Positions 35,171 to 55,865 of a stretch of DNA of 64,000 nucleotides are shown in pieces. The stretch lies in assembly GCA_964619055.1 (NCBI GenBank), contig CAZUDB010000002.1, positions 29,723-93,722 of the forward strand. The letters run 5' to 3'. Made by a program: the position numbers and the translations under genes. Each line of letters starts with the position of its first letter. The stretch's first letter is position 1. This DNA is from an uncultured Rhodospirillaceae bacterium (GTDB taxonomy: Bacteria > Pseudomonadota > Alphaproteobacteria > Rhodospirillales > Defluviicoccaceae). Below the pieces are notes generated by a model. That model was not told where the DNA came from. It searched no databases and saw only the letters and a list, made by a program, of their open reading frames with translations.

Positions 35171-36154
35171 ATGAACGTCATTCACGAGCCTCGGTTGCAA
35201 TTTCGATCCATCTGGATCTCGGACATTCACCTCGGAACCCGAGGCTGCAATGCCGACATGCTGCTGGATTTTCTTCGGCAGACGGAATCGGATTACCTCT
35301 ACCTGGTCGGCGATATCATCGATTTCTGGCGGCTTCGCAAGACGTGGTATTGGAAACAAACTCATAATGACGTTATTCAAAAAATCCTTCGAAAAGCCCG
35401 CAAAGGAACGAGGATAATCTACATCCCCGGAAACCACGACGAGAATTTTCGGGACTTTACAAATCACAGATTCGGACGTGTTGCCGTCCTCCATGACACC
35501 TTTCATACCATGGTAGATGGTCGTAAATTTCTGGTCATGCATGGCGACCATTTCGATGGTGTCGTCAAATATGCGAAATGGCTCGCTTATCTTGGCGATA
35601 CGGCTTACGTCTGGCTGCTGAACGTGAACACATGGATGAATTATGTTCGGCGAAAGCTGGGTTTTTCATATTGGTCGTTGTCTGGGTATTTGAAGCATAA
35701 GGTCAAAAACGCGGTTGAATTCGTCAGCAACTACGAAAATGCTGTTGTTTCGGAGGCACGGCGCCGTGGCGCCGACGGCGTGATTTGCGGCCACATTCAC
35801 ACGGCCGAGATCCGCGAAATAGACGGGATTGTCTATTGCAACGACGGCGACTGGGTTGAAAGTTGCACAGCGTTGGTGGAGCATTTCGACGGACGGCTTG
35901 AGATCCTACGTTGGTCCGAAGTTTTCGACGTTCGCCAAGCTGAAGGGGCCGCTGGGTCTGAACCGGCAAAGCCTGCTGTTGCCGAGCACGGGATGGCCAG
36001 GGGCTCAGCCTCGGTCCTTGCTGTGCAGCGACTACTGTTGGCGGAAACTGAACGCGCCGGGACGGCGAGGGTTGATCAAGAATGCGGATCTGCATCGTCT
36101 CGGATGCCTGGTTTCCTCAAGTCAATGGCGTTGTTCGCACGCTCCACACGTTAA
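35171..36154 (+). CDS. plcP: LpxH-like calcineurin-type metallophosphoesterase; likely phosphate-starvation phospholipase C PlcP
   Basis: WISDIHLGTRGC, YLVGDIIDFW, IPGNHDE, MHGDHFD and CGHIHTAEI are the metallophosphoesterase motifs. The gene is immediately followed by, and overlaps, a GT4 gene. This is the plcP-agt arrangement known in Alphaproteobacteria. Confidence 0.62.
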   Translation: MNVIHEPRLQFRSIWISDIHLGTRGCNADMLLDFLRQTESDYLYLVGDIIDFWRLRKTWYWKQTHNDVIQKILRKARKGTRIIYIPGNHDENFRDFTNHRFGRVAVLHDTFHTMVDGRKFLVMHGDHFDGVVKYAKWLAYLGDTAYVWLLNVNTWMNYVRRKLGFSYWSLSGYLKHKVKNAVEFVSNYENAVVSEARRRGADGVICGHIHTAEIREIDGIVYCNDGDWVESCTALVEHFDGRLEILRWSEVFDVRQAEGAAGSEPAKPAVAEHGMARGSASVLAVQRLLLAETERAGTARVDQECGSASSRMPGFLKSMALFARSTR

Positions 36155-37098
36155 GCCAGCGGCTGGAGCAGCGTGGGTACGAGCCGCGCTTTGTGACACC
36201 GGATCGTTTTCGAAGCACGCCCTGTCCTACCTATCCCGAGATCCGTCTGGCTATGACTCGGCCCTCGGCCGTGGCCGATATGATAAATGCCATCGAGCCA
36301 AGCGCCGTTCATATCGCAACCGAGGGACCCCTTGGCTGGCTCGCGCGCCATTACTGCCTTAGGCGAGGCTATCCGTTCACCACGGCCTATCACACGCGCT
36401 TCCCCGAATACGTCAAGCCGCGTTTCGGCATTCCGCACTCTTGGAGCTATCGCGTGCTCCGCCACTTCCATGGCCAGTCAGCCGGCATCATGGTGTCGAC
36501 GCCGAGCATCGAAGCGGAGCTTCGGGCGCGCGGATTCGATACCCCAATTAGGCGCTGGACACGCGGCGTCGACCTAACGCTGTTTCGGATTCGCCACGAT
36601 GTCGACTTGCGGCTCCCGCGGCCGATTTCCTTGTTTGTCGGCCGGCTCGCGGTCGAGAAGAACGTGGAGGCCTTCCTGAAACTCCAGCTGCCGGGCAGCA
36701 AGGTCGTGATCGGAGATGGCCCAATGCGGGCCCAATTACACTCCCATTATCCAAACGCACATTTTGTTGGACCGCAGTTTGGGGAAGATTTGGCACGCTA
36801 CTATGCCGGATCGGACGTTTTGGTGTTTTCGAGTCGGACCGACACGTTCGGTCTTGTCATCCTGGAAGCGTTGGCCTCGGGCCTGCCCGTCGCCGCCTAT
36901 CCGGTGCCGGGACCGCAGGACGTTCTGGATGGTTTCGACGTCGGCGTCCTTGACAACGATCTTGGCGCCGCCGTGAAGCGGGCCCTAATGATCGATCGCC
37001 CGCGCTGCCGGGCTTGGGCTGAACGCTTTTCGTGGGATGCCAGCGCGGATCAATTCCTTAGCAATCTCGCGGTGTTTCGCCCCACGGGTCAAACCTGA
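36082..37098 (+). CDS. agt: GT4-family glycosyltransferase; likely diacylglycerol glycosyltransferase (Agt-like)
   Basis: 338 aa starting MRICIVSDAWFPQVNGVVRTL, with a C-terminal GT1-fold E-x7-E-like region (SRTDTFGLVILEALASGLPV). It overlaps the plcP-like gene by 73 nt. Confidence 0.6.
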   Translation: MRICIVSDAWFPQVNGVVRTLHTLSQRLEQRGYEPRFVTPDRFRSTPCPTYPEIRLAMTRPSAVADMINAIEPSAVHIATEGPLGWLARHYCLRRGYPFTTAYHTRFPEYVKPRFGIPHSWSYRVLRHFHGQSAGIMVSTPSIEAELRARGFDTPIRRWTRGVDLTLFRIRHDVDLRLPRPISLFVGRLAVEKNVEAFLKLQLPGSKVVIGDGPMRAQLHSHYPNAHFVGPQFGEDLARYYAGSDVLVFSSRTDTFGLVILEALASGLPVAAYPVPGPQDVLDGFDVGVLDNDLGAAVKRALMIDRPRCRAWAERFSWDASADQFLSNLAVFRPTGQT

Positions 37099-39897: not shown

Positions 39898-40371
39898 TCA
39901 GACGTGCTCGGTCTTGGCCGCGATGACGCGCTGCTCCAATTGCTGAAAGCGGCTGGTAAGGTTTGCGAGGCGCTCCGATAACGAACGCATGACGGCCAGG
40001 GCGGCGTCGGGATTCTCAACAATCAGGCGGAGAAACACATCAACGTCAATCTTGAGGACTTCGAGATGTGATGATGCACGAATGGTTGCAGTGCGGGTTT
40101 GGTTAAGGATGATCGCCATCTCGCCGAAAAGCTCGTGGCGACCGAGGCTACCCACCTGGGTCTCGCTGCCTGCGGCACCGGTCAGGACGTCCACCTCCCC
40201 GCTTTCGATGACGTAAGCGCCATCGGCCGCGTCACCTTCCCGAAACAGCTCCTCGCCTCGTTCAAACGTCAAATAAGTGCTTGAAAACGCGAGTAGCTTT
40301 AGCTTGGCCATATCTAGGTGGCCAAACAGTGGGATGCCGCGGAGGATGGCGATCGCGTCACCGTATTGCAC
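39898..40371 (-). CDS. Standalone cyclic-nucleotide-binding (CAP effector) domain protein
   Basis: 157 aa. The beta-roll reads LRGIPLFGHLD...GEELFREGDAADGAYVIESGEVDV...LFGEMAIILNQTRTATIRA and is followed by a C-terminal helix. Confidence 0.8.
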   Translation of the reverse strand: MQYGDAIAILRGIPLFGHLDMAKLKLLAFSSTYLTFERGEELFREGDAADGAYVIESGEVDVLTGAAGSETQVGSLGRHELFGEMAIILNQTRTATIRASSHLEVLKIDVDVFLRLIVENPDAALAVMRSLSERLANLTSRFQQLEQRVIAAKTEHV

Positions 40372-40472
40372 GCCGCTGTCGTCCTTTCTCCGTCCGACAT
40401 CCGAACACCGTATTCGGTGGGCGGCAGTTTACCGGCCTGTCCAGTGTTCCATCAACCATCTCGCTGTCCTGA

Positions 40473-43133
40473 TCAGGATGCGGTGACGCTGACTTGCGCC
40501 ACGGCGGCCCCGTCCGGCGGGTTGTCATGATCCTCTTCGTCCGGTTTGCCGTCCCTGACGACCCGTCCATGATCCATCACCAGCACCCGGTCAAATGCCG
40601 ATGCGTCAACTTCACTGTTCAGCACCCAAACGACCGCCCCCCGCTCAGCCACGACTGCCCGCATGATCGCGGTCTGGCTCGCGGGGTCAAGCGTGGCCGT
40701 AGCATGGTCCAGGACCAGAAGGTCGGGCTGCTTCAACAGTGCCCGCGCCAACAGCATTTTTTGTCGTTGTGCCGCTGACAACCGGCTGCCGCCGATACCG
40801 ACCTGGTGATCGAACCCGATTGCCACGATGGCTCGCCGCAAGCCGATCCGCGTGATCACATCCTCAATGAGGCCGCCCACCAGCCGCTGCGCTTGAAGTC
40901 GCCCGTAGACCAAGCGTCCGAACAAGACGTTGTCCTGAACCGAGGCAGCTGGGTTGTATTGGTCGGGCTCGAAAAACGCAACGGCGTGCTGAAGGTCCGC
41001 AGGAAGATCCTGAGCGAAGGCGTGGCGCGCAGCCAATAGACGTGGGGTGGTCTCGCCGGTGATCAACCCCAAGCGATGTCGCGCTGGGATCAACTTGAAA
41101 GGTAAAGACAGCAGCAGTTTGCGATCTTCCCGTGACAACCGATCCAGCCGCTGAGGATTGGCCCGCCGCAACACCCCCTGGTAGGTTGGCAGAGCGTCGA
41201 CGCTGATGAAGCTGAATCGCTCAAACAATTCGTCGCCCGGCTGTGCTCCCTGGAACAACTCCAGCATGATCTTGGCTACCTGCAGACCGTCGGAAACGAG
41301 GACTTCCTCCAGTTCGAAGCGGCGCAATACGGACAGCATGTATGGGTTTTCGGCGATGTGCTCCAGATCAAACACGGGACCGATCGGCGTCCCAAACAGC
41401 AGGTTCTCCGCAAGTGTCATGTTGTTGTTGTACTTGTCGCGGTCGAACGGCTCGACCAACCCGGTGTAGGCGGCGTCCTCAAGGCGATCGCGAAGCTCGC
41501 GCCGGGCGTCCAAGATTTGCTGGGACAAGCCCTCGTGCGATGCGGGGTCGATGCGTCCCTGTAGGCCGAAGCCAAACAGATCGTCGTCCATGCCCACAAG
41601 GCTCAGCACGGTCACGGCACGATCGGATAGATCCTCCAAGTCACGGGCATCTGCGTCGCGCAGGTCGATCCAAAGCCCATCCGGTTGGCTAACAGTGCTG
41701 CCTGATTGCTGGGCTTCCTGGATCCGCCGCTTGCGGGTGGACGACTGAGCCGGAGACTCCTTAGGCATGTCGATGGGAATCGGCTGGTGCTTCAGCCCAT
41801 AATAGAGGTTGTCACCAATTGACCCCTGGAATAGGTGCCCGGATTGGCCGACGTAAGCGATGCGTCGGCCCGTGACCGTTTGCGAGATTGTAGCAAGGTC
41901 GATGTCGCCAATGCGAATGCTGCCCGAGGTCGGGATCAGGAGCCGAGCGATCAGTTTGGCGAGCGAACTGGCGCCAGATCCTTCTTGACCAACGATGGCA
42001 ACGCGTTCTGACAGATCGAACGAGAATGACGCGCGGTCGACAACCCTGATGCCATCCTCTTCTTCGAGGGTGACTCCATTGGCTACGACCGTACCACTGA
42101 GCCGCGGGACCACGCCGTCCGCAGGCGTCTGTAGGCTTTCGTCTAAGATGCCCGGTGGATCAAACTGTTCGACCAGCTGGTCATACTTAATTCGTGTATC
42201 TTCCTTAATTTGATACCACTTGAGCAGTTCTTTCCAAGGAGAAGAGAGGTCCTTATAGGCAGCAAGTACGGCAACAAGCGCACCAAATGTGAGATCTCCA
42301 GTAATAACTAGGTATCCACCAATAGAAAAAAAGAAAAATGGCGTCAATTGACCGATAAAATTATTAAGAAATTTGATAAAAAACTTCTTTTTATAGATTT
42401 TGTATCGGATTTCGTAGATGGTTCCGAGCCATCTGGAGATATCTGCTTTTTCATATTCAGCAGTGTCGTTGGAGTGGACGTTCTCAATTCCCGATACCAC
42501 TTCCCCAAGACGTTCCGATAATTTTCTGACAGTTTGAACACGCTGCTTCGCAAGCACATTAACCTGTCGCTGCAACTTCGGAATGATGTACGCTTGAACA
42601 GGCGACAGGGCCATGGCAGCCAGACCAAGCTTCCAGTCTTGGGCGAACATGAACGCTAGGATCGTCAGCATCGTTCCGCCTTCAAAGGCCGGTGTCGCAA
42701 AGGCCTCGCCCACGAAACCGCCGACGGGCTCCACCTCTGCAGTGATCATGGCGATGATCTCGCCCTGGGAGGTCTTGCGGAAGCGAGGCAACGGAAATCT
42801 GAGAACACGACTGAACAGCTGATAGCGAAGGCGCCGCAACATCCGTTCACCAAGCTGGCCTTTATAGACATTAATATAATACCGAAAAATAAATCGAACA
42901 AAAACTAACAATAAAAACAAACCACACAGCATAAAAAGATATTGGATCTGCATAAGATCAAATCCAAATACTGTTTTCGGAAAATCAGTACTGCCAATCG
43001 CCTCGTTTACTATAATTTTCGGAACCTCGAGTGAGGCGTATAAAAATGGAAATGATGATATCGTAAGTATAAGGAGGAGTATTTGCTCCTTGCGGCTGTA
43101 TTTAAAGATGTAGCTGAACAGCGTTGGTTGCAT
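40473..43133 (-). CDS. ABC exporter-type fused permease/NBD protein with degenerate ATPase motifs and a large NBD insertion
   Basis: 886 aa with an N-terminal 6-TM ABC_membrane-like region. The NBD has Walker A GQEGSGAS (Lys replaced), Q-loop YVGQSG, signature LSAAQ and Walker B LLVLDHATATLD (catalytic Glu replaced by His). About 330 aa lie between the Q-loop and the signature. Confidence 0.78.
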   Translation of the reverse strand: MQPTLFSYIFKYSRKEQILLLILTISSFPFLYASLEVPKIIVNEAIGSTDFPKTVFGFDLMQIQYLFMLCGLFLLLVFVRFIFRYYINVYKGQLGERMLRRLRYQLFSRVLRFPLPRFRKTSQGEIIAMITAEVEPVGGFVGEAFATPAFEGGTMLTILAFMFAQDWKLGLAAMALSPVQAYIIPKLQRQVNVLAKQRVQTVRKLSERLGEVVSGIENVHSNDTAEYEKADISRWLGTIYEIRYKIYKKKFFIKFLNNFIGQLTPFFFFSIGGYLVITGDLTFGALVAVLAAYKDLSSPWKELLKWYQIKEDTRIKYDQLVEQFDPPGILDESLQTPADGVVPRLSGTVVANGVTLEEEDGIRVVDRASFSFDLSERVAIVGQEGSGASSLAKLIARLLIPTSGSIRIGDIDLATISQTVTGRRIAYVGQSGHLFQGSIGDNLYYGLKHQPIPIDMPKESPAQSSTRKRRIQEAQQSGSTVSQPDGLWIDLRDADARDLEDLSDRAVTVLSLVGMDDDLFGFGLQGRIDPASHEGLSQQILDARRELRDRLEDAAYTGLVEPFDRDKYNNNMTLAENLLFGTPIGPVFDLEHIAENPYMLSVLRRFELEEVLVSDGLQVAKIMLELFQGAQPGDELFERFSFISVDALPTYQGVLRRANPQRLDRLSREDRKLLLSLPFKLIPARHRLGLITGETTPRLLAARHAFAQDLPADLQHAVAFFEPDQYNPAASVQDNVLFGRLVYGRLQAQRLVGGLIEDVITRIGLRRAIVAIGFDHQVGIGGSRLSAAQRQKMLLARALLKQPDLLVLDHATATLDPASQTAIMRAVVAERGAVVWVLNSEVDASAFDRVLVMDHGRVVRDGKPDEEDHDNPPDGAAVAQVSVTAS

Positions 43134-43239
43134 AGGTATGTGTAGGTCTTGAAGAGCCTCAGAAAATATTGGGATTATAAGTCGACGTCATCGCGGCGCG
43201 GCTGCCATCGATACGAGCCGGATGTGATTTCCAGCGGTT

Positions 43240-45162
43240 TTAAGACGGCTTTGCGCTCGTCGACTCGAAAACGCGAACCACGTCGACGTCGAGGGTCCGG
43301 GTATCGGCGTCTTTCACCAACCAGTCACCGCTCGCGTCCTTTACAAAGCCCAGCTCCGACAGGACCTGCACGGCGGGGCCATTGCGCCCGGTGGCCCGGA
43401 ACCGAACCCACAGCGATGTGCCAAGGTTTGCTGTGCGTGCCAGAAGCGACGCAAACAAGGCTTGTTCCAACATTCGGCCTTGAACACGACATGACAGCAT
43501 GAACTCCTCCACAACGACACGATTGTCCGCATGTCGGACAACCGCAAAACCGACCGTTCCATAATCGCCAAATCGATCTCGGCATCGAAGAACCAGCTTG
43601 TCGGTTACGTTCGATGAGATCAAGTCTTCGACTTCCTTACTTGAGTACTTAGAGCCCGAATAATTGAGTTGGTTCGTCCGTTGAACGAGCTCGATGACTC
43701 TCGCCACGTCGTCGTCGGCGATTGGGTCAATTTGCAACTCTATCTCACAAGACTTTAGAAAACCAAGGTAATCGTTACCCCATTGGCATTGGTCTCGCCG
43801 GCGTGCCAGGTCTTCATGATAAAGGCGACGGCGATTACCAGCCTCGCGGCTGGCACTGCCGGCAAAACGCGGATCGGACAACAGGCGCGGCGCCATCTCC
43901 GGCGTTACAGTCAGCACCTCCGGAAGGGCTGAGGATACCTCGGTACGTTCGAACGGGGAATCGTCCACAAATGCGAAGGAGTCGAGCCCCAGATTCAGGT
44001 GCCTCGCGATTTGGAGCAGATGCTGGCTTTTGGGTCCCCAATCGATTTGCGGATGGAGCACAAGATCAGCAATGCCGAATCGCTCAAGTTGCGTCCAGGC
44101 GACCTCCAGATCGTTGCGGCTCGCGACACTGATCAAAATGCCGCGGGCATCGAGGCGGCGCATCGTCTCGACTATCTCGGGGCGCAAGCGCAGATGTTGG
44201 CCGCGACGATGGTCCGATTCCACGAGGACGCCATCCCACAGCGTGTTGTCCAAATCGAAAACGACGCACTTTATCGGCGGACCTCCCGATGGGGAGGGCG
44301 CCTCGGTTGCGGCCGCCGGGATGGCGCGTTGCCAATCGGCCTGATCAATGCCGGCCACAAAATCGAGAGTGAGAAAAACGAGCCTCGGTGCCGTATCGGC
44401 TTCAGGCTGAATGGAAATCTTGGATGGTTGGTTGGCGCCCAGAAGGTGAGCAAAGTGCTCACGCCCAATGATGTGAAGGCTGTATCCAGGCGGCGCTTTG
44501 AGCCGTGCGAGCATTGGCGGCAGCGGCTCCCCGTTCGGTCCGAGGGGGTGATCGTTCTTGATGCGATAGGTCACGCCGAGGACGATAGCCTCTGGTTGTG
44601 GGTTATAAAGTTCCGCAACGAACGCCTCCGGCGCGTCCGACACGGTCGTCGCCATCGCTGAGTTGTTCGGCGCCATGCACCGTCGCAGCATTAGCTTTTT
44701 CGCGACGCGGCGGGGATCCGGGGGAAGTGTTTTGCCGGTGGGATCGCGGACCAGGGATGGATCGTGATGGAGCGCACGGGTCCACGCCGCGAGTCGATGA
44801 TTCGGTGAAAAGGCAAGCACTCGTTCGCGCCGGATGATGCGGGCCATCGGCTCCAGTACCGTGTTGGCGTCGGCCTCGATTTTTCCCCAGGTCGCGAAGG
44901 CCAGATCGACGCCGTAGCTGCGCAAGGACGCGAAGCGGCGATCGCGGCGAAAGCCCCAAGTCAACCGCCGGCACCCGCCGTCCGCCCGCGGCATATAAAG
45001 GGCGCAGCTCTCGTAGCACTGCGGTGCCGCACACTCCATGCAATGCTCGCCCCACCATAGGAAGGACAGGGCGCGGACCGCCTTGATGGGCTGATACGTG
45101 GCGATCAGTCGTTCGGGCGAGACCTGATGGCGGGTCCGATCGTACTGGTCAAAATCAAACAT
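43240..45162 (-). CDS. FkbH-like HAD-IIIC family protein with N-terminal Cys-rich domain and C-terminal GNAT-like domain
   Basis: ORF 43240..45288 was trimmed to MFDFDQY at 45162. The HAD motif I is IKCVVFDLDNTLWDGV. The N-terminal motif is CMECAAPQCYESC. The C-terminal region (VVEEFMLSCRVQGRMLEQ) looks like the FkbH acyltransferase-like end. Confidence 0.72.
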   Translation of the reverse strand: MFDFDQYDRTRHQVSPERLIATYQPIKAVRALSFLWWGEHCMECAAPQCYESCALYMPRADGGCRRLTWGFRRDRRFASLRSYGVDLAFATWGKIEADANTVLEPMARIIRRERVLAFSPNHRLAAWTRALHHDPSLVRDPTGKTLPPDPRRVAKKLMLRRCMAPNNSAMATTVSDAPEAFVAELYNPQPEAIVLGVTYRIKNDHPLGPNGEPLPPMLARLKAPPGYSLHIIGREHFAHLLGANQPSKISIQPEADTAPRLVFLTLDFVAGIDQADWQRAIPAAATEAPSPSGGPPIKCVVFDLDNTLWDGVLVESDHRRGQHLRLRPEIVETMRRLDARGILISVASRNDLEVAWTQLERFGIADLVLHPQIDWGPKSQHLLQIARHLNLGLDSFAFVDDSPFERTEVSSALPEVLTVTPEMAPRLLSDPRFAGSASREAGNRRRLYHEDLARRRDQCQWGNDYLGFLKSCEIELQIDPIADDDVARVIELVQRTNQLNYSGSKYSSKEVEDLISSNVTDKLVLRCRDRFGDYGTVGFAVVRHADNRVVVEEFMLSCRVQGRMLEQALFASLLARTANLGTSLWVRFRATGRNGPAVQVLSELGFVKDASGDWLVKDADTRTLDVDVVRVFESTSAKPS

Positions 45163-45522
45163 GACGTCATTACCCGAGGCCAAACGGTCCCATACGGGGC
45201 CGGCCATGCAACGGAGGATTGGACGTCGGCGATTCGGTCGCCCGTCCGATTGAAGCGTTCGATTTCTGTGCCTTGATAGACAGACCAAACGTCAGTCTAT
45301 AGTGGTGGGTCCGCCACATGATTGCGATAAATATATCGCGAGAGACGGCGTAGAAGCACGAGCACCTTGACCTTACGCCGTTTTTGGGGCGAGGGTTGGC
45401 CCGACGAGAGCGATTTTCGGTGCGGTCCGCGTTCACCCTTGCGCGACTACTTTCTCGCTTTAGCATGGCAGCCCTCACTGACGTTTGAACCGCAGTGAGA
45501 CTCGTGGGCGATGTAAGCACGC

Positions 45523-46755
45523 ATGCCAAATGGTCACGGTCATCATCGGCTGCTCATCTACAGCCACGACTCTTTCGGGCTTGGTCACCTACGGCGATGC
45601 CGGGCGATTGCTCATGCCCTGGTTGACCGGCGATCTGACCTTTCCGTCCTGATCCTATCCGGATCGCCCATCATCGGCAGCTTTAGCTTTCGCAACCGTG
45701 TTGATTTTGTGCGCATTCCCGGTGTCATCAAACTCCGGGATGGCGATTATTCACCGCTGAAGCTGAACATCGGCATCGAACAGACCCTGCAGTTGAGGGC
45801 GTCGATCATCAGCCATACGGCCGAAGTGTTCGCGCCGGACGTCTTTCTGGTCGACAAGGAACCGCTTGGTTTGCGTGGCGAGGTCCGCGAAACCCTGGCT
45901 ATGCTGAAAGCGCGTGGCATCCCGCTTGTGTTGGGGCTTCGCGACGTCATGGACGATCCAGCCACGCTCGCCGAGGAATGGCGGCGCAAAAATGCCGTGC
46001 CCGCGCTTGCGGGGCTTTACGACCACATCTGGGTCTACGGTCTGCCCGAGATTTGTGACCCGTTGCAGGGCGTGCCTGTGCCAGCGGCTGTCCACAACAA
46101 GGTGCATTTCACGGGCTACATCCGCAGGACGCTGCCCGACGGCACCACGACCGCTGAACCGTGGACGTCGGCTGACACCGAGCCCTACATTCTGGTTACG
46201 ACGGGTGGCGGCGGCGATGGCGCGGCGGTCATCGACTGGGTCTTGAAGGCCTATGAGCATGACCCAAGGATCCCTTGGCGGGCGCGGGTGGTTTTTGGGC
46301 CGTTTATGCATTCGCGGGTGCAGTCGGCGTTTCGTGAGCGAGTCGCCCGGCTCGAATCCGTTGACGCCATCACCTTCGATGCCAACTTGGAAACTTTGAT
46401 TGCCCATGCGGCGGGGATCGTGGCCATGGGCGGCTATAACACCTTTTGCGAAATTCTGTCCTTCGACAAACCGGCACTGCTCGTCCCGCGTACGGTGCCA
46501 CGGCTGGAGCAGGCAATCCGGGCGGAGCGTGCTAGTGTCCTCGGGCTGGTTCGGACGTTACCTTTAGACGGCGATCGCGATCCCATCTTGATGGCGGCCG
46601 CGATTCGCGCACTCCCGTTCCAGCCCCGTCCATCACAGACCGACATTCCCGCCCTTTTGGATGGACTGAGTGAGATTGGCGCGCTTGTAGACGGGTGGCT
46701 CGACACATCGCTGGCGCGGCCCGACCGGCCGGCAGCGGTTCGATTGCCGGCCTGA
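45523..46755 (+). CDS. Glycosyltransferase, GT28-like fold (COG4671-type predicted glycosyltransferase), copy 1
   Basis: 410 aa with N-terminal LLIYSHDSFGLGHLRRCRAIAHAL and a C-terminal GGYNTFCEILSF motif typical of the MurG/UDP-glycosyltransferase C-domain. Confidence 0.7.
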   Translation: MPNGHGHHRLLIYSHDSFGLGHLRRCRAIAHALVDRRSDLSVLILSGSPIIGSFSFRNRVDFVRIPGVIKLRDGDYSPLKLNIGIEQTLQLRASIISHTAEVFAPDVFLVDKEPLGLRGEVRETLAMLKARGIPLVLGLRDVMDDPATLAEEWRRKNAVPALAGLYDHIWVYGLPEICDPLQGVPVPAAVHNKVHFTGYIRRTLPDGTTTAEPWTSADTEPYILVTTGGGGDGAAVIDWVLKAYEHDPRIPWRARVVFGPFMHSRVQSAFRERVARLESVDAITFDANLETLIAHAAGIVAMGGYNTFCEILSFDKPALLVPRTVPRLEQAIRAERASVLGLVRTLPLDGDRDPILMAAAIRALPFQPRPSQTDIPALLDGLSEIGALVDGWLDTSLARPDRPAAVRLPA

Positions 46756-46756
46756 C

Positions 46757-48085
46757 GTGCCCGAGGGTGCACCCCCATCGCCCCGGAGCGGCTCGATCGC
46801 GATAATCCTTAAAGGCTATCCCCGCCTGTCGGAGACATTCATCGCCCAGGAGATACGCGGCCTGGAACGCCGCGGCTTGTCACTGCGCCTTTACTCCCTT
46901 CGCCACCCCACGGACCATGCCACGCATCCGATCCATGCCGAGATCGAGGCACCCGTCGTCTATCTGCCCGAGTATCTTCACGACGCGCCGCGCCGTGTTG
47001 CGGCCGCTTGGCTGACCGTTCGACGTTGGCCGGGCACCCATGCTGCGCTTGTGCTGTGGCGACGCGATTTGACGGGTGATCCCAGTCGTAATCGGATCCG
47101 CCGTTTCGGCCAGGCGTGCGTCTTGGCCGCCGAACTCGCCGATGACGTGACCCATCTGCATGCTCATTTTCTGCATACGCCGGCATCGGTCACACGCTAT
47201 GCGGCAGTGATGCGCAGCTTGTCTTGGAGTGTTTCCGCCCATGCCAAGGACGTGTGGACGTTGCCCGACTGGGAGAAGCGCGAGAAGATCGCCTCCAGTC
47301 AATTCGTCGCTGCCTGCTCTGCTTACAACGCGGATCACCTGGCCGCTCTCGCACCGACGCCATCTCGCGTTCATCTCCTGTACCACGGCCTCGATTTGGA
47401 TCGGTTTCCACCGGCCGCGCGGATAAGGAGCGAACGCACTGGCGCTGATCCGAGAGACCCAGCAATCATCCTTTCGGTTGGGCGCCTAGTGGCCAAAAAG
47501 GGCTATGATGTGCTGCTTCAGGCGTTGGCGGCCTTACCCCCGGACTTGGCTTGGCGCTTCGTCCACATCGGAAGTGGACCATGTCAACCGGCGTTGGCTC
47601 GCCAATCTGCCGCCTTCGGCCTTACCGAGCGTGTCCAATGGTTGGGGGCGCAGTCCCAAAAGACCGTGCTGCGCTGTTTGCAAACGGCGGACCTGTTCGC
47701 ACTGGCATCCCGCATTACGGCTGACGGGGATCGCGACGGCTTGCCCAATGTCCTAATGGAGGCCCAGAGCCAGGGTTTGGCCTGTGTTGCCACGCGTGTT
47801 GCGGCAATTCCGGAGTTGATCACCCAAGAGCCCCGAAACCAGGCAACTGGTATGCTGGTCGCGCCAGATGACCCGCAAGCCCTATCCGAGGCGATCGCTC
47901 AGCTGATTGCAGATCCGGACCTGCGCGCCCGACTGGGCAGCGCTGGCGAAGCGCGGGTTCGCTCCAATTTCGATATGACCACGGGGCTCGACCGACTGGC
48001 TCAGTTACTGGCGCCCGGCCGCTTGCCTTCGAACAGCCCCGACAATGAGGTGAAAGCGTGCGCATCATCTTCCATGCGCCCCTGA
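46757..48085 (+). CDS. GT4-family glycosyltransferase
   Basis: 442 aa with GTG start 1 nt after the preceding stop. The C-terminal reads GRLVAKKGYDVLL...DGLPNVLMEAQSQGLACVAT. Confidence 0.78.
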   Translation: MPEGAPPSPRSGSIAIILKGYPRLSETFIAQEIRGLERRGLSLRLYSLRHPTDHATHPIHAEIEAPVVYLPEYLHDAPRRVAAAWLTVRRWPGTHAALVLWRRDLTGDPSRNRIRRFGQACVLAAELADDVTHLHAHFLHTPASVTRYAAVMRSLSWSVSAHAKDVWTLPDWEKREKIASSQFVAACSAYNADHLAALAPTPSRVHLLYHGLDLDRFPPAARIRSERTGADPRDPAIILSVGRLVAKKGYDVLLQALAALPPDLAWRFVHIGSGPCQPALARQSAAFGLTERVQWLGAQSQKTVLRCLQTADLFALASRITADGDRDGLPNVLMEAQSQGLACVATRVAAIPELITQEPRNQATGMLVAPDDPQALSEAIAQLIADPDLRARLGSAGEARVRSNFDMTTGLDRLAQLLAPGRLPSNSPDNEVKACASSSMRP

Positions 48086-49242
48086 AGCCTCCATCTCATC
48101 CGGTCCCCTCGGGCGATCGCCAGATGGCACGATTGTTCATGGCGGCGTTGGCTGCGGCCGGCCATGTGGTTAAGCTCGCGCCAGCGTTTCGGACATACGA
48201 CGGTTCCGGCGACCCTGCTCGCCAAGCACGGATCGCGGACCTAGGCCACAGTCTCGCCCAGCGGTGGCTCCAGCGCTGCGCTGCTGGTGATCCGTCCAGT
48301 CGGCCTGACCTTTGGTTCACCTACCATCTGTACCACAAAGCCCCCGATGTGTTGGGGCCAGCGATCAGCCAGGCCCTCGGCTGCGCGTACGTCGTTGCCG
48401 AAGCCTCCTATGCACCGAAGCGTATGGGTGGCCCGTGGGACCGGGGGCATCGAGCAGTTGCTGCCGCGCTCTCGAGGGCGGACCTGGTTCTGACGCTCAA
48501 CGAAGCCGACGCGCCGTGCCTGCTGCCCCTTCTCAAGCCCACATGCCGCCATGTTCTGTTCACCCCCTTTTTGGATGCCGCACCCCTGTTTGATGCCGCC
48601 AAATCGCGGTCCTGGCACCGCGCCGCGCTCAGTTGCCGTTGGGCTCTAGACCCGAGCGAGCCCTGGTTGATCGCCATGGCGATGATGCGCCCAGGCGCGA
48701 AACTGGCATCCTATCGCCTGTTGGCGGACGCTCTCGGTAGGACCACCCACCGGCGGTGGCGCTTGATCATTGTCGGCGATGGTCCGGCCGCGCCGGAGGT
48801 GCGAAACGCCTTTTCGCGAATTGCAGGGCGAGTGGTGTTCACCGGACAACTGGCGGCCGCGGACGTTGCTGCGCATTTGGCCGCCTGTGATCTTACGGTT
48901 TGGCCCGCCGTGGACGAGGCCTACGGGATGGCACTGCTCGAAGCTCAAGCGGCCGGATGTCCGGTTGTTGCCGGACGGACCGGTGGCGTACCTCGGATCG
49001 TCGCTCATGCGCGGACAGGTTGTTTGGTTCCCGTTGGCGACGTCTATGCGTTCGCGGACGCTGTGGGTGGCCTTCTGGAGGACCGCGAGGTCCTTTCCCG
49101 TTTGCGTTCGACGACCTGGAGCTACGTGAACGAACATCACAGCCTCCCGGCGGCAAGCCAGCGGCTCGATGCCCTACTTCGTCGGGCTAAAGGGCGCGCT
49201 GTTTCCGAGGCTTTGAAACGCGGGCTGATCTCCGCACACTAA
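48058..49242 (+). CDS. GT4-family glycosyltransferase
   Basis: 394 aa with GTG start overlapping the previous gene by 28 nt. It starts MRIIFHAPLKPPSHPVPSGDRQMAR and carries EAYGMALLEAQAAGCPVVA. Confidence 0.75.
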   Translation: MRIIFHAPLKPPSHPVPSGDRQMARLFMAALAAAGHVVKLAPAFRTYDGSGDPARQARIADLGHSLAQRWLQRCAAGDPSSRPDLWFTYHLYHKAPDVLGPAISQALGCAYVVAEASYAPKRMGGPWDRGHRAVAAALSRADLVLTLNEADAPCLLPLLKPTCRHVLFTPFLDAAPLFDAAKSRSWHRAALSCRWALDPSEPWLIAMAMMRPGAKLASYRLLADALGRTTHRRWRLIIVGDGPAAPEVRNAFSRIAGRVVFTGQLAAADVAAHLAACDLTVWPAVDEAYGMALLEAQAAGCPVVAGRTGGVPRIVAHARTGCLVPVGDVYAFADAVGGLLEDREVLSRLRSTTWSYVNEHHSLPAASQRLDALLRRAKGRAVSEALKRGLISAH

Positions 49243-49264
49243 GGGGCACTCTGGAGCAGCCGTC

Positions 49265-50428
49265 ATGTCCCTGCGCGTCTTGTTTTATGTCCAACACCTG
49301 TTGGGGATCGGCCACCTAAAACGGGCCGCCGCGCTTGCCGACGCCATGGTGCGGGACGGCTTACAGGTCCGCGTTGTGCTCGGTGGGTCGCAGGTACCGG
49401 GTATCCGTTTCGATGGTTGCGCTAGGGTTACACTGCCCGCCATTCGTTCCTTTGATAGCACATTTTCTAAGTTGGTGACTGACGGCGGTGAGCCCCTGGA
49501 TGACGACTTTCGTGACCGCCGGCGCGATCGGCTCCTCTACGAGTTCGCCACCGCCCGCCCCGATGTCGTTTTGATCGAGCAGTTTCCCTTTGGCCGTCGA
49601 GCCTTTCGGTTCGAGTTGATGCCGCTGATTGCCGCAGCCCGCTCAGCACGCCCGGAGCCGCGGCTGCTCAGTTCCGTTCGCGACATTGTGGTACGCAAGC
49701 GAGATCCGGCCCGCAACGACGACATGGTCCGTTTGGCGCAGCGCTGGTTCGACCTTGTGCTTGTGCATGGAGATCCGGAGCTGGCTCCACTGACGGACTC
49801 CCTGCCCGAGGCGACCGCCCTCACAGATAAGCTTTGCTACACAGGATATGTCTGCCGGCGGCATGTTCCTGCCGCGACCGCGTCAGCGTCATTGCGGAAG
49901 GCAAGGGCGGGAACGGGGGAGGTTATCGTTTCCGTTGGCGGCGGTGCCGTGGGCGAGGCCCTGTTGCGGTGCGCGTTGCAGGCACGCCCGATCAGCTCAC
50001 TGGCGAACCGGCCGTGGCGGCTGATTGCGGGCCCCAATCTGCCGGCGGGCACCTTCTCCGATCTCGTGTGGGCGGCGCCGGACGGGGTCATCGTGAACCG
50101 GTGGCGCGACGATATGCCGATCCTGTTGCGCAATTGCATCGTGTCCGTATCGCAAGCGGGCTACAACACCGTTTGTGACCTCCTTCAGGCGAGTACATCT
50201 GCGGTTCTGGTGCCGTTTGCAGACGGTGCGGAAACCGAGCAGACGATCCGCGCCGAGGCGCTTGCCAAATGCAATGCCGCCGTTATGGTCCATCCGAACG
50301 CGTTGACGCCGAAGACTCTCGCTGAGGCGATTGCCACGGCAACATCACGGCCTCCCATGCCTGCGGGCTTGGTGGCGCTGGACGGCGCTGCTATGGCGGC
50401 CCGGGTGGTGGCTTCTAGGCCGTCGTGA
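49265..50428 (+). CDS. Glycosyltransferase, GT28-like fold (COG4671-type), copy 2
   Basis: 387 aa with VLFYVQHLLGIGHLKRAAALADAM and SQAGYNTVCDLL. It is a paralogue of 45523..46755. Confidence 0.7.
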   Translation: MSLRVLFYVQHLLGIGHLKRAAALADAMVRDGLQVRVVLGGSQVPGIRFDGCARVTLPAIRSFDSTFSKLVTDGGEPLDDDFRDRRRDRLLYEFATARPDVVLIEQFPFGRRAFRFELMPLIAAARSARPEPRLLSSVRDIVVRKRDPARNDDMVRLAQRWFDLVLVHGDPELAPLTDSLPEATALTDKLCYTGYVCRRHVPAATASASLRKARAGTGEVIVSVGGGAVGEALLRCALQARPISSLANRPWRLIAGPNLPAGTFSDLVWAAPDGVIVNRWRDDMPILLRNCIVSVSQAGYNTVCDLLQASTSAVLVPFADGAETEQTIRAEALAKCNAAVMVHPNALTPKTLAEAIATATSRPPMPAGLVALDGAAMAARVVASRPS

Positions 50429-50515
50429 TGGCGTGCGGATCGCTGGCTAATGAGACAGCGCAACCGCTTTGCTTTGGTGGTGTTCGGCGACGAGTGAAAA
50501 CCGCCGGGGGTTGGC

Positions 50516-51313
50516 ATGACCGGTTGGGAAGGCCTGACGGACGAATTGGATGCTTGGTCGAGCGCCGGCCGTGTCGCGACCCTGTGGTGGCGCGACGACG
50601 ATGCAACGCGGGCGTCGCCTGACCTGGAGCGACTCCTGGATTTGAGCGACCGATTCGGTGTGCCGGTTGCTTTGGCGGTTATTCCGCGAGACATCGATCC
50701 CTCATTAACCTCTGCGATAGTGGGCCGAGCCGCAGTCGCCACACTTCAGCACGGCTGGAGCCACGACGATCACGCGGTCGACGGCGATCGCAAAGAGGAG
50801 CACGGGCCGGACCGACCCCGTGATGTCGTGCTCGATGAATTGGCTGAAGGATGGAGGCGGATCCGTACCCTTCCCGGCAGCTTGCCTGTATATGTCGCCC
50901 CGTGGAATCGCCTCGATCCTTCGTTGATCTCGCATCTTCCGTCCGTTGGCTTGCATGCCGTATCGACCGATCATGCGCGCTCGGCCGCTGAACCAGAGGC
51001 TGGGGTGCGCCGTACGAACATTCACTGTGATCCCATCGATTGGCATGGCGGTGGCCGCTTCGGAGGTGACGAGGCTGCGTTGGGGCAGGTAATCGAACAT
51101 CTTGCCAACCGTCGCACCAACCGCGTCGATGCCTATGAGCCGACGGGACTTATGACCCACCACCAGTTTCATGACCCCGAATGTTGGACGTTCGTTGGCC
51201 GACTGCTTGCGCATACGCTTGCCCATCCGGCCGCTCGGTGGCTTTCCGCGCGCGACGCATTTTGGCCCGATGGCGACGTGCCGACGGTGCATGTGGCCGA
51301 GCGTCGCACATGA
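50516..51313 (+). CDS. Polysaccharide deacetylase-like protein (divergent)
   Basis: 265 aa with ATLWWRDDDAT...GVPVALAVIP...LQHGWSHDDH, resembling a NodB/DUF2334-type deacetylase layout. The assignment is by motif resemblance only. Confidence 0.5.
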   Translation: MTGWEGLTDELDAWSSAGRVATLWWRDDDATRASPDLERLLDLSDRFGVPVALAVIPRDIDPSLTSAIVGRAAVATLQHGWSHDDHAVDGDRKEEHGPDRPRDVVLDELAEGWRRIRTLPGSLPVYVAPWNRLDPSLISHLPSVGLHAVSTDHARSAAEPEAGVRRTNIHCDPIDWHGGGRFGGDEAALGQVIEHLANRRTNRVDAYEPTGLMTHHQFHDPECWTFVGRLLAHTLAHPAARWLSARDAFWPDGDVPTVHVAERRT

Positions 51314-51821
51314 CCGCAGCCACACTGACTTATCCATGGGACGACGTGGCCGCTGACTATCTCCGGGCGGGCGTCGGGCTCGGCCTCACGTTGGTTCCAC
51401 TTATCGCTTTGGAGACCGCAATACCGGTAGCGGCAGTTCTGTCGGGGGCCGCGTTGCTGTTTGGCGCGTTCGCGGTTCGTACCATCAATCTGCACTTGTC
51501 CCGGATTGAGGTGGATGACGTGGGACTCCGCCATGCAGGTTTAGTGACGCGCGCAATCCGCTGGTCCGATCTGGACGGCTTGACGCTTGCCTTCTATGCG
51601 CATCGGCGTGATCGCAGCGAAGGTTGGATGCGCCTTCGCTTGAGTGGCCAGGGCCAGCGTTTGGCGGTCGAGTCGGGACTTCAAGGTTTTGAGGCCTTGG
51701 CCGAACGCGCTTTGCGGGCGGCGCGGGACAATGGCATCACATTAGACGAAAGGTCGCTTGCTAACCTGGAAACCCTTGGCGTCAACCGGCAAGCGGATGG
51801 AGCGCTGCTCGGGAGGCTGCC

Positions 51822-51825
<4 letters not shown>
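51310..51825 (+). CDS. Two-TM membrane protein of unknown function
   Basis: ORF 51181..51825 was trimmed to MTAATLTYPW at 51310 (ATGA overlap with the deacetylase stop). It has two hydrophobic helices followed by a soluble domain. Its stop overlaps the GTG start of the ABC ATPase. Confidence 0.5.
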
Positions 51826-53747
<1,922 letters not shown>

Positions 53748-53893
53748 CGGTGGCCGCTTTAACGGTTCGCCGTGCTTCTTGTTGTGTTATGGACGAGGTA
53801 TGGTGCTCCGGTCGTAGGACAATGATCGGACCAAAAACGAACCAGACGGTGACTCGCTGAATCGCCAAGATCTGGATAGCGGAGAACGAGAGT

Positions 53894-55819
53894 ATGTCAG
53901 GGTCTCATACGCCGATCCTTACAAAGATCGTGAGCGTCAATGTCGTCGTTCTCATCTGCCTCTTGGCGAGTTCCAAGGGTCTGGCCACCACTTATATGGA
54001 GCCGCCGGTTCTGAAGTCACGTGTGGAGGCGGGTCAGCTGCCGCCAGTTCGGGACCGGCTTCCCAAGGAGCCGTTTGTCGTTGATCTGGCTGCCGAAAAC
54101 AAACAGCCGGGCAACTATGGCGGTACCCTGAAGACAATGATGGGCCGCGAGAAAGACACCCGTATGATGGTTGTTTACGGCTATGCCCGTCTGGTCGGGT
54201 ATGGCCCTGATTGGGCTCTGCGCCCGGACATATTGGCGCGAGTCGACAATGACGGAGATCGCAGCTTCACCTTCCATCTGCGTCCGGGCCACAAGTGGTC
54301 TGATGGTGCCCCGTTCACGTCTGAGGATTTTCGCTACGTTTGGGACGATGTTCTGACCAACGAAGAAATGTCTCCTGGCGGATTGCCGGCCTTTCTTTTG
54401 GTCGATGGCCGACCGCCGGTGTTCGAGGTTATCGACGAGGTGACGGTGCGTTACACCTGGGACAAGCCAAATCGTGGCTTTCTGCCGGCATTGGCCGGCG
54501 CCCGGCCCGAGTATCTTTATTTGCCTGCGCATTTTTTGAAGCCGTTCCACGCCAAGTATGCCGAGCCCGAGGCCTTGAAAGCGAAAATCGCCGAAGAAGG
54601 CCAGCGGAATTGGATCGCTTTGCATTTTAGAAAAGCTCAGCCCTACAAGAACGACGATCCGGAATTGCCGTCGCTGCAGCCGTGGATCCTCGAAACAGCC
54701 CCGCCCTCAAACTTGTTCTCGTTTCGGCGGAACCCGTACTTCCACCGCGTCGATCCGACCGGAAAACAGCTCCCCTACATTGACGAGGTGAAGTTCACGG
54801 TCGTCAATTCGAAGCTGATTCCGGCCAAGGCAGCCGCGGGCGACAGCGATTTGCAAGCGCGCGGTCTCGGATTTGAGAACTACGCAATCCTGAAGCAAGG
54901 AGAAGAGGATCGGGACTTTAAAGTCCGCCTGTGGCGTTCCGCAGCTGGCTCCGAAATGGCGCTCTACCCAAACTTGAATGTCACGGATTCGAACTGGCAA
55001 ATGCTCATTCGCAACGCCGATTTTCGGCGTGCTCTTTCGCTTGGGATCAATCGCGAAGAAATCAACCAAACCATCTATTTTGGCTTGGCCGAAACCGGCA
55101 ACAACACCGTCTTGAAAGAAAGCCCACTGTACAAAAGCGAGTTTGCGCAGGCGTGGACTGAATTCGACACCAAGAAAGCGGCGGCGCTTTTGGACCAGAT
55201 CGGCCTGTCGAACAAGGATGATCGCGGTGTTCGTTTGCTTCCCGATGGCCGGCCGGCGGAAATCATCGTAGAGACCGCCGGCGAGGATCCGACGGAAACT
55301 GATATTCTGCAACTGATCCGCGATACGTGGACGCCGCTCGGCATCAAGCTCCACATCAAGCCACTGCAGCGTGAGGTGTTTCGCAACCGGATTTTTGCAG
55401 GCGAGACCCTGTTGGCGATTTGGAAGGGCATGGAGAACGCGGTTCCGACCGCGGACATGGTGCCGTTTGAGCTGGCTCCGACCCATCAAATGCAATATGC
55501 GTGGCCTAAATGGGGCCTCTACGCTGAGACCCGCGGCCAGGCGGGAGAGGAAATCGATCTGGATGCTGTTCAGGAATTGGCAGCGCTCTTTCAGAAATGG
55601 GAGCAGGCTCCGGACAGCGAAACCCGGCGTGACATCTGGCAGCAGATGCTCGCCATTCATGCGGAGCAACAGTTTACGATTGGCATCGTTCGTGGCGTTC
55701 CACAACCGGTCGTAGTGAACTTGGCGCTGCGCAACGTCCCCGAAAGCGCGATCTACAATTGGGAACCTGGTGCTCATTTTGGGGTCCACCGTCCGGATAC
55801 GTTCTGGTTCGCCCGCTAA
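53894..55819 (+). CDS. Family-5 (peptide/nickel-type) periplasmic substrate-binding protein
   Basis: 641 aa with a signal peptide and SBP_bac_5-like sequence (YGGTLKTMM, FTFHLRPGHKWSDGAPFTSEDF). Confidence 0.85.
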   Translation: MSGSHTPILTKIVSVNVVVLICLLASSKGLATTYMEPPVLKSRVEAGQLPPVRDRLPKEPFVVDLAAENKQPGNYGGTLKTMMGREKDTRMMVVYGYARLVGYGPDWALRPDILARVDNDGDRSFTFHLRPGHKWSDGAPFTSEDFRYVWDDVLTNEEMSPGGLPAFLLVDGRPPVFEVIDEVTVRYTWDKPNRGFLPALAGARPEYLYLPAHFLKPFHAKYAEPEALKAKIAEEGQRNWIALHFRKAQPYKNDDPELPSLQPWILETAPPSNLFSFRRNPYFHRVDPTGKQLPYIDEVKFTVVNSKLIPAKAAAGDSDLQARGLGFENYAILKQGEEDRDFKVRLWRSAAGSEMALYPNLNVTDSNWQMLIRNADFRRALSLGINREEINQTIYFGLAETGNNTVLKESPLYKSEFAQAWTEFDTKKAAALLDQIGLSNKDDRGVRLLPDGRPAEIIVETAGEDPTETDILQLIRDTWTPLGIKLHIKPLQREVFRNRIFAGETLLAIWKGMENAVPTADMVPFELAPTHQMQYAWPKWGLYAETRGQAGEEIDLDAVQELAALFQKWEQAPDSETRRDIWQQMLAIHAEQQFTIGIVRGVPQPVVVNLALRNVPESAIYNWEPGAHFGVHRPDTFWFAR

Positions 55820-55865
55820 GGTAACGGCGGCCGGCGACGGGGCGGTGTAGGGTTTTTGGTAGATC

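Follow-up and report, generated by a model that had tools for sequence, protein, structure and literature searches.

A Defluviicoccaceae bacterium carries a probable copy of the alphaproteobacterial PPP / opt-red envelope-glycan locus

We suggest that a gene cluster of an uncultured Rhodospirillaceae bacterium (Defluviicoccaceae; assembly GCA_964619055.1) is the version, in this organism, of an envelope-glycan locus of Alphaproteobacteria known as "PPP / opt-red," and we propose a model of assembly and export for it; we hold this reading, model included, with moderate confidence. The cluster occupies positions 39898 to 58015 of the window, the 64,000-nucleotide stretch of contig CAZUDB010000002.1 that was analyzed. 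Positions are those of the window, and contigs of the genome are labeled C2 (the window's own), C18, C22, and C33. A leftward set of genes (Table 1) encodes an FkbH-like protein, an ATP-binding cassette (ABC) half-transporter, and a stand-alone cyclic-nucleotide-binding (CNB) protein; a rightward set encodes four glycosyltransferases (GTs; the COG4671-type enzymes GTa and GTb and the family 4 enzymes GT4a and GT4b), a deacetylase, a small protein with two transmembrane (TM) helices (the 2-TM protein), and an importer. The locus probably builds and exports an envelope sugar compound. It is orthologous gene by gene to SMb21252-SMb21271 of Sinorhizobium meliloti, with conserved linkage, and the same arrangement occurs in Rhizobium etli. 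The initial annotation of the window, made from its sequence alone, had presented positions 39898 to 51825 as a candidate undescribed glycoconjugate system. This stands insofar as the locus fits none of the three standard polysaccharide pathways, and it falls insofar as the orthologous S. meliloti PPP and R. etli loci have published mutant phenotypes. The orthology refutes the claim only in part, because the product and mechanism of the rhizobial loci remain unsolved: the system is already described genetically and is biochemically unsolved.

A tblastn search of plasmid records with GTa gave matches on pSymB-type replicons of Sinorhizobium and on plasmids of Rhizobium. In S. meliloti, genes for an adenylate cyclase and a polysaccharide lyase are followed by those for the importer ATPase, its solute-binding protein (SBP), two permeases, a GTa-like enzyme, a GT4 enzyme, and a GTb-like enzyme and then, after a methyltransferase gene on the opposite strand, by those for a 903-amino-acid (aa) ABC protein, a 155-aa CNB protein, and an FkbM methyltransferase. 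A second GT4 gene and a deacetylase gene were not found by tblastn inside this operon, the equivalent of R. etli opt; the GT4-deacetylase pair of S. meliloti lies ~5 kb upstream of the main operon. Identity to the S. meliloti proteins is 61% for the importer ATPase, 52% for GTa, 52 to 53% for GT4a (pSymB 838365-839612), 47% for the SBP, 44% for GTb, and 41% for the CNB protein. GT4b is 40% identical to SMb21252 over its full length (E = 2e-80), the deacetylase is 38% identical to SMb21253 (E = 1e-52), and the ABC protein is 37% identical over 889 aa to SMb21268/69, which shares its insertion and has equally dead motifs. An exact-sequence look-up (UniRef Q9X6W3) supplied the name RedA for the orthologue of GTa. 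Neither the 2-TM protein nor the FkbH-like gene was detected by tblastn at the S. meliloti locus. On the R. etli plasmid, the order is adenylate cyclase, importer ATPase, SBP, two permeases, a GT28-like GT, a GT4 enzyme, another GT, a 904-aa ABC protein, and a 155-aa CNB protein, and no FkbH-like gene is annotated at the locus. This plasmid locus is presumably the opt operon, with two redA genes and one redB, of the 2007 study by Vos et al., in which an oligopeptide ABC transporter was reportedly found to be needed for full symbiotic nitrogen fixation and for stress resistance. Other S. meliloti genes were considered and set aside. The msbA2 operon (SMb21188-21191), as a candidate for the closest system, lies at ~938 kb on pSymB, ~100 kb from the orthologous region at 822 to 846 kb, and has a different gene set; the rkp-3/KPS genes SMb20804 and SMb20805, as candidate locus tags, belong to a different cluster.

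The mutant phenotypes come from a phazolicin screen of S. meliloti. In Data Set S1, Travin et al. (2023, mBio, PMC10128002) list SMb21264 as redA, SMb21265 as redB, SMb21266 as a second COG4671 GT, SMb21269 as an ABC exporter, SMb21252 as a GT, SMb21253 as a deacetylase, SMb21256 as a nucleotide-sugar dehydrogenase, SMb21259 as a lyase, and SMb21271 as a methyltransferase. Transposon insertions in all of these genes were strongly depleted under phazolicin, and an adenylate cyclase, CyaA, and a putative phosphodiesterase for cyclic nucleotide monophosphates (cNMPs) were also recovered. The MIC of phazolicin was 8-fold lower for smb21252 and smb21265 mutants, and the authors proposed the name PPP, "phazolicin-protecting polysaccharide," for the product (PMC10128002). 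Seven of the nine S. meliloti PPP genes are induced under attack by Myxococcus (PMC10315480). By analogy with these phenotypes, the glycan is likely to serve as an envelope barrier or stress protectant. Compared with strain R28, strain 1021 has a frameshift in the ABC gene on pSymB (L085 16724-19435), which divides it into SMb21268 and SMb21269; despite this frameshift, insertions in SMb21269 are among those strongly depleted under phazolicin.

Conservation of the gene set was assessed from a scan of species-representative genomes, which found at least 583 stretches encoding the ~880-aa ABC family; 80 of these loci were taken with 10-kb flanks. Gene counts are from tblastn of every window protein against the 80 loci and are given for the 52 with complete flanks (Table 1). 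Gene families were clustered from an all-against-all comparison of the open reading frames (ORFs) of these loci and the window (81 in total), and a family was called conserved if present in at least 8 of the 81. Co-conservation of the ten genes of the initial annotation held for the glycan synthesis and transport core (41 to 52 of the 52 loci) and broke down for the FkbH-like gene (3 of 52). Judged by gene content, the core consists of the four GTs, the CE4 deacetylase, the ABC-CNB pair, and the importer, with the FkbH-like gene outside it. The accessories are the FkbH-like decorator, a histidine phosphatase, a GGDEF protein, and the cyclase, lyase, dehydrogenase, and methyltransferases. The histidine phosphatase (199 aa; PF00300, 141 bits) is encoded between GT4b and GTb in 50 of the 81 loci (e.g., L028 5633-6232), including most of the marine Rhodospirillales-type ones, whereas the window, the Defluviicoccus-like loci, and Sinorhizobium lack it; the window's own genome has weak His_Phos paralogues only. 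A PF12692 methyltransferase gene follows the CNB gene in 40 of the 81 loci and is missing from the window. The dehydrogenase, lyase, cyclase, and methyltransferases of the rhizobial loci look like rhizobial accessories, since they are missing from the conserved families. No UDP-sugar dehydrogenase, PF14099 lyase, adenylate cyclase, or methyltransferase is encoded at positions 37918 to 58015, and the nearest dehydrogenase paralogue of the genome, on another contig, shows 39% identity. Outside the conserved set, the flanks of the related loci hold housekeeping genes (xth, lolA, and ftsK).

Rhodospirillales have a divergent layout of the locus, Azospirillum a split one, and Rhizobiaceae a colinear one. 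In Azospirillum, the block from GTb to the importer has been relocated to the other side of the ABC-CNB pair, and in Azospirillum aestuarii and Azospirillum halopraeferens a PAS-GGDEF gene lies between the two GT4 genes (L009 6240-7292 and L024 6150-7313). This diguanylate-cyclase-like insertion is a second link of the locus to nucleotide second messengers. In Defluviicoccus, GTb and the deacetylase are fused in a single protein (645 aa in Defluviicoccus vanus, L081 4221-6158; ~650 aa in L005 4033-5997). Because of the fusion, the block move, and the insertion, we take the linkage to be functional and not merely inherited. Were the genes neighbors by descent only, the locus would combine an ordinary peptide importer, an independent ABC-CNB signaling or transport unit, and GTs for lipopolysaccharide or another known glycan, and one could then cite the 2 of 52 loci in which the ABC-CNB pair has no GT nearby, the lack of GTa in Sneathiella, and the defect in oligopeptide utilization that R. 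etli opt mutants reportedly show. We consider such an accidental association distinctly improbable, because the linkage survives several independent rearrangements across orders, the window genes are translationally coupled, and the GTs, deacetylase, and ABC protein of S. meliloti give the same phazolicin phenotype.

The predicted enzymes are consistent with synthesis of a glycan that contains an amino sugar. The AlphaFold2 (AF2) model of GTa (pLDDT 84) has a GT-B fold and, among PDB entries, best matches GT-B enzymes of the GT1 family. The deacetylase model (pLDDT 94.9) has CE4 deacetylases as its best Foldseek matches (top match 3rxz, E = 9e-8; CE4 entries at E = 1e-7 to 1e-5, with TM-scores of 0.5 to 0.62), its best PDB neighbors including a mycobacterial polysaccharide deacetylase, acetylxylan esterases, chitin and peptidoglycan deacetylases, and ArnD. 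RDDD, HGxxH, PWNR, DxxDW, and THH are invariant in its alignment and represent all five CE4 motifs, with the metal-binding and acid-base set. From its fold and motifs, this DUF2334-like protein is predicted to be a CE4-fold deacetylase, in support of the initial annotation, which had called it deacetylase-like. It has no match to PF01522 (Polysacc_deac_1), its sole Pfam match being DUF2334 at E = 0.009, under the cut-off, and a sequence-profile search of the PDB with it and with the 2-TM protein returned nothing significant. Inspection by eye revealed no signal peptide. The fusion in Defluviicoccus suggests that deacetylation is coupled to the GTb step. The 2-TM protein has two predicted TM helices and a C-terminal domain of ~100 aa, and no match to it was found in Pfam, NCBIfam, or the PDB. 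A low-molecular-weight thiol pathway, which would also combine a GT4 enzyme (MshA/BshA-like), a phosphatase, and a deacetylase, was considered and rejected, as the GT4 scores 80 bits against a cut-off of 274 and there is no ligase or Cys-adding enzyme.

The putative exporter is unusual in its nucleotide-binding domain (NBD). Its type IV transmembrane domain is clearly recognized (PF00664, 97.4 bits against a cut-off of 28), and an insertion of ~300 aa in the NBD splits the ABC_tran domain into two stretches. Tested against GxxGxGK[ST], LSGGQ, and hhhhDE, the Walker A Lys-Ser/Thr (GQEGSGASS), the signature (LSAAQ), and the Walker B Glu (LLVLDHAT) are all degenerate, in agreement with the initial annotation. 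Both the degenerate motifs and the insertion are family-wide, the Glu after the Walker B Asp being absent in 12 of 12 aligned members and in S. meliloti. The best 120 database matches (54 to 69% identity, at least 86% query coverage) are mostly from Rhodospirillales, Defluviicoccus, Rhodobacterales, and Hyphomicrobiales and form a tight family of ~880-aa proteins. Within the 5' part of the ABC gene, two blocks at 42200 to 42550 and 42800 to 43150 have 30 to 41% G+C (the gene otherwise has ~60%); they encode stretches rich in Lys, Phe, Ile, Asn, and Tyr, namely, the N-terminus and the transmembrane domain segment KKKFFIKFLNNF, in which the amino acids are conserved in relatives.

The partnership of the CNB protein with the ABC protein, noted from the window alone, proved invariable: the two genes adjoin in all 52 complete loci. 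The CNB protein matches PF00027 above its cut-off and the cassette pattern G-E...R-[ST]-A; its phosphate-binding cassette (FGE...RTA) is intact, with G83, E84, A86, R93, and A95 invariant in nine orthologues. No helix-turn-helix was found in it, and the CRP, FtrB, and NtcA models match its N-terminal sensor part only, far under their cut-offs. A further link to cNMPs is the adenylate cyclase gene inside both the S. meliloti and the R. etli loci.

The importer, which consists of a fused ATPase, an SBP, and two permeases (51822 to 58015), had been left out by the right-hand boundary of 51825, which was too narrow. Found in 45 of 52 loci and translationally coupled, this Opp/Dpp-type transporter is part of the conserved unit and of the core. 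The SBP has weak NCBIfam matches only, and the Opp4B- and Opp4C-like matches of the permeases lie under the cut-offs. An identity with YejABEF was considered for the importer and is not supported, as its parts are of generic Opp/Dpp/Nik type and the SBP is orphan-like.

We propose that the two GT4 enzymes (a retaining family) and the two COG4671/GT1-like GT-B enzymes (an inverting-type fold) would assemble a short or repeating glycan, containing an amino sugar, on the cytoplasmic side of the inner membrane, using an acceptor that is not encoded at the locus. The cytoplasmic CE4-type metalloenzyme would then remove an N-acetyl group; we place this step before export because the deacetylase is cytoplasmic and fused to GTb. 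In the window's lineage only, the FkbH-like enzyme would add an extra substituent. The product would cross the inner membrane via the MsbA/PglK-fold ABC protein, with its degenerate ATP-hydrolysis motifs, in a step controlled by the stand-alone cAMP/cGMP-binding CNB protein. The co-transcribed Opp/Dpp-type importer would take up a related periplasmic ligand, perhaps a fragment from turnover of the glycan, perhaps a peptide. It is possible, although we regard it as doubtful, that the locus represents a fourth kind of envelope-glycan route in Proteobacteria, defined by GT-B-only assembly, cytoplasmic de-N-acetylation, the lack of a linked priming enzyme, non-hydrolyzing cNMP-gated ABC translocation, and retrieval by an importer. 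If so, second-messenger control would bear directly on translocation of the glycan rather than on transcription.

The principal alternative is that the locus makes no surface polysaccharide but a small, partly de-N-acetylated oligosaccharide or glycoside. After release to the periplasm, this compound would be taken up again, its level being set jointly by the cNMP-gated pseudo-ABC protein and the importer, much like that of an osmoprotectant or a signal. Four single-step GT-B enzymes with no polymerase, synthase, or chain-length regulator would suit such a product, as would a cytoplasmic deacetylase, the cytoplasmic histidine phosphatase of the 50 loci (such enzymes being typical of sugar-phosphate intermediates), the likeness of GTa to small-molecule GT1 enzymes, and an importer that is co-conserved and translationally coupled to the biosynthetic genes. 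We nevertheless think it rather unlikely. The S. meliloti phenotype also requires a secreted polysaccharide lyase and a UDP-sugar dehydrogenase from the locus, which points to a uronic-acid polymer; the importer is not among the phazolicin matches in the accessible part of the screen; and the SBP has no recognizable sugar-binding relative.

Several points also weigh against the identification as an envelope-glycan locus that we prefer. By structure, GTa is closest to GT1 enzymes for the glycosylation of small molecules, a product has yet to be isolated from any species, and the locus has no linked enzyme for lipid-carrier priming. A homodimer in which both ATP sites are degenerate is not expected to pump, and we infer export by the ABC protein only from its fold and because SMb21269 is required. 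In R. etli, the opt study reportedly connected the importer with the uptake of oligopeptides rather than the retrieval of a glycan. Since the window lacks the dehydrogenase, lyase, methyltransferases, and cyclase of the rhizobial loci, its chemistry may differ from theirs; in rhizobia, the dehydrogenase and lyase suggest a polymer that contains uronic acid, and the product of the window may thus differ from the rhizobial one in more than the FkbH-dependent decoration. As far as Data Set S1 is accessible, the importer genes are not among its phazolicin matches (PMC10128002), and a 2026 preprint still has SM_b21220-SM_b21274 as encoding an uncharacterized exopolysaccharide (EPS).

The FkbH-like gene had been given a central part in the proposed system, a role that the comparison does not bear out. 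It occurs in 4 of the 80 loci, all of them the closest relatives of the window (L001, L002, L003, and L033; 3 of the 52 complete loci), and its family is found in unrelated EPS loci of other phyla, which argues for a plug-in decorator and not a core component. The protein consists of an N-terminal domain with five Cys residues, a HAD-IIIC domain, and an FkbH C-terminal domain that scores well above the TIGR01686 cut-off of 146.65 bits (Table 1). Members of the family (~620 aa) are 40 to 50% identical across Proteobacteria, Acidobacteria, Planctomycetes, and Binataceae. The three distant relatives examined are all in EPS loci, one beside genes for exosortase EpsH/EpsI, a GT4 enzyme, and TylF and two directly upstream of a PF01522 deacetylase gene, close to Wzy or Wzx genes. 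In 11 members from several phyla, the N-terminal motif W-x-E-H-C-x-E-C-A-x-P-x-C-x3-C-x-L-Y-x2-R-x-D-x2-C-R-R (44975-45042; residues 37 to 66) is invariant, as is the HAD DxDxT (D303, D305, and T307) across the family. The five-Cys motif, in a domain without a Pfam family, is probably a metal or Fe-S site. We read the gene as that of a portable glycan-decorating enzyme, apparently inserted between the ABC gene and GTa as a lineage-specific accessory. A glycerate-derived unit, which the initial annotation had brought in from known FkbH systems, is not a defining feature of the system, since there is no carrier protein on C2, the genome's three PP-binding matches being on C33, C22, and C18. The FkbH-like HAD enzyme was also considered as a stand-in for the missing histidine phosphatase, and this was rejected because Defluviicoccus-like loci (L005-L007) and S. 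meliloti lack both genes.

On C18 (36459-42704), a Bac_transf phosphoglycosyl transferase gene lies ~5.5 kb from a PP-binding carrier protein gene. This region may be a separate EPS locus, and its PP-binding protein could in principle supply a carrier for the FkbH-like enzyme. In the genome profile search, this Bac_transf gene (PF02397), on C18 and not on the window's C2, is the only one.

The intergenic region between the two divergent units contains a perfect 16-bp palindrome, GCGATAAATATATCGC, at 45324 to 45339. Among 55 related ABC-GTa intergenic regions, only 1 contains the pattern GCGAT-N4-8-ATCGC; if the palindrome is an operator, it is therefore a lineage-specific one. The region has no Rfam match, and a promoter scan found no promoter-like match inside it; neither a CRP/Clr box (TGTT-N8-AACA) nor a common operator was found among the 55 related regions. 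There is also no convincing Pho box, the half-site words CTGTCA or TGTCAT occurring in 4 to 9 of the 55. The absence of such a repeat is relevant to the idea that the locus makes a phosphorus-free membrane glycolipid in response to phosphate starvation, with the ABC protein as a lipid flippase. The window does encode, upstream, a PlcP-like metallophosphoesterase and an agt-like GT4 enzyme (35171-37098) and a large PstS/DING-like protein (29339-31270), all of which have the look of phosphate-starvation functions, MsbA is the best family match of the ABC protein, and GT1- and GT28-like enzymes often use lipid acceptors. However, in none of the 80 related loci does the cluster have PlcP and Agt genes linked to it, the PstS/DING-like gene is likewise unlinked in related loci, and four GTs with a deacetylase and an importer exceed the needs of known glycolipid pathways. 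We therefore judge a glycolipid product to be very improbable.

The gene calls of the initial annotation were sound: ORF listing and profile searches recovered all ten ORFs of positions 39898 to 51825 with the expected family signatures. The FkbH-like ORF extends to 45288, and homologues align only from ORF residue 43, so we place the start at the ATG at 45162, which fits the 360-bp control region that had been proposed. The spacings were likewise as described, with a 1-nucleotide (nt) gap between GTa and GT4a, a 28-nt overlap of GT4a and GT4b, gaps of 22 nt between GT4b and GTb and of 87 nt between GTb and the deacetylase gene, and an ATGA overlap of the deacetylase and 2-TM genes, at which the 2-TM gene most likely starts (51310). 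A GTGA overlap of the 2-TM and importer ATPase genes couples the importer translationally. Profile searches of the 14 cluster genes found no Wzx/Wzy/Wza, Wzm/Wzt, GT2 synthase, or initiating phosphoglycosyl transferase domain, as had been claimed.

Table 1. Features of the locus, with the number of related loci (of the 52 with complete flanks) in which each gene was found
Feature	Position	Strand	Evidence	Loci (of 52)
CNB, stand-alone cyclic-nucleotide-binding protein, 157 aa	39898-40371	-	PF00027, 79 bits	52
ABC half-transporter, 886 aa, type IV (MsbA/PglK-like)	40473-43133	-	ABC_membrane and split ABC_tran	
FkbH-like protein, 640 aa	43240-45162	-	TIGR01686, 238.5 bits	3
Divergent intergenic region, 360 bp	45163-45522	.	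Sequence	
GTa, COG4671-type GT-B glycosyltransferase, RedA (SMb21264) orthologue	45523-46755	+	PF04101, 23 bits	45
GT4a, GT4 glycosyltransferase, RedB (SMb21265) orthologue	46757-48085	+	PF00534, 110 bits	49
GT4b, GT4 glycosyltransferase, SMb21252 orthologue	48058-49242	+	PF13692 and PF00534 matches	48
GTb, second COG4671-type GT-B glycosyltransferase, SMb21266 orthologue	49265-50428	+	PF04101, 45.9 bits	47
Predicted cytoplasmic CE4-fold deacetylase, SMb21253 orthologue	50516-51313	+	AF2 model, Foldseek, motifs	41
2-TM small membrane protein	51310-51825	+	Sequence and alignment	32
Importer ATPase, fused double-NBD, Opp/Dpp/Nik-type (PepT)	51822-53747	+	Family matches	45
Importer SBP, family 5, divergent, 641 aa	53894-55819	+	PF00496, 189 bits	
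Importer permeases, two (55866-56864 and 56861-58015)	55866-58015	+	BPD_transp_1 matches	

The locus family is present in at least several hundred alphaproteobacterial species, among them plant symbionts, plant-associated Azospirillum, and marine Rhodospirillales. It affects antibiotic tolerance in rhizobia and, reportedly, symbiosis in R. etli. The split into core and accessories shows experimenters which genes to target, and the differences between loci probably encode lineage-specific decorations. The copy in the window adds this split and the FkbH-like insertion to what is known of the family, and little else.

Parts of the locus resemble several known systems. The predicted deacetylase has the CE4 fold, the Asp/His-His metal motifs, and the cytoplasmic location of NodB and ArnD, which are de-N-acylases of biosynthetic intermediates, and it differs from that group in having no PF01522 match and at most 17% identity to solved CE4 structures. 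The FkbH-like protein shares with the glyceryl-acyl carrier protein-forming enzymes FkbH and OzmB the HAD-IIIC domain, an FkbH C-terminal domain above the TIGR01686 cut-off, and the DxDxT motif; in contrast to them, it has an additional five-Cys N-terminal domain, there is no carrier protein in its cluster or on its contig, and its family occurs in polysaccharide and not polyketide loci. MsbA, PglK, NdvA/ChvA, and HepA, type IV exporters of lipid-linked or free glycans, have the transmembrane domain family and half-transporter layout of the ABC protein, which scores 204 bits with the MsbA profile (the best family match), 172 with HepA, and 105 with ChvA, all far under the cut-offs. Unlike MsbA, PglK, NdvA, and HepA, it combines degenerate ATPase motifs with an NBD insertion of ~300 aa and an obligate cNMP-binding partner.

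At the level of whole loci, an "uncharacterized glycan" cluster of Agrobacterium tumefaciens (Atu2577-Atu2592) can be likened to the locus by description, as it combines an ABC exporter (Atu2577) and a UDP-GlcNAc dehydrogenase (Atu2582) as well as GTs (Atu2583, Atu2590, and Atu2592), with links to tolerance of a small toxic molecule and to the physiology of the envelope. Its loss relieves the fitness cost of deleting yejABEF, which encodes a muropeptide importer, and Gilmore and Cava (2022, PMC9790009), who described this effect, cite it as required for phenazine tolerance; according to Travin et al. (PMC10128002), the A. tumefaciens orthologues of the PPP genes came from the same pyocyanin screen. 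The closest counterpart is SMb21252-SMb21271 of S. meliloti. That locus is colinear, whereas the one in the window is divergent, and it has in addition an adenylate cyclase, a PF14099 polysaccharide lyase, a UDP-sugar dehydrogenase, and two methyltransferases; the two loci have in common orthologues of GTa, GT4a, GTb, GT4b, the deacetylase, the ABC protein, the CNB protein, and the Opp-type importer.

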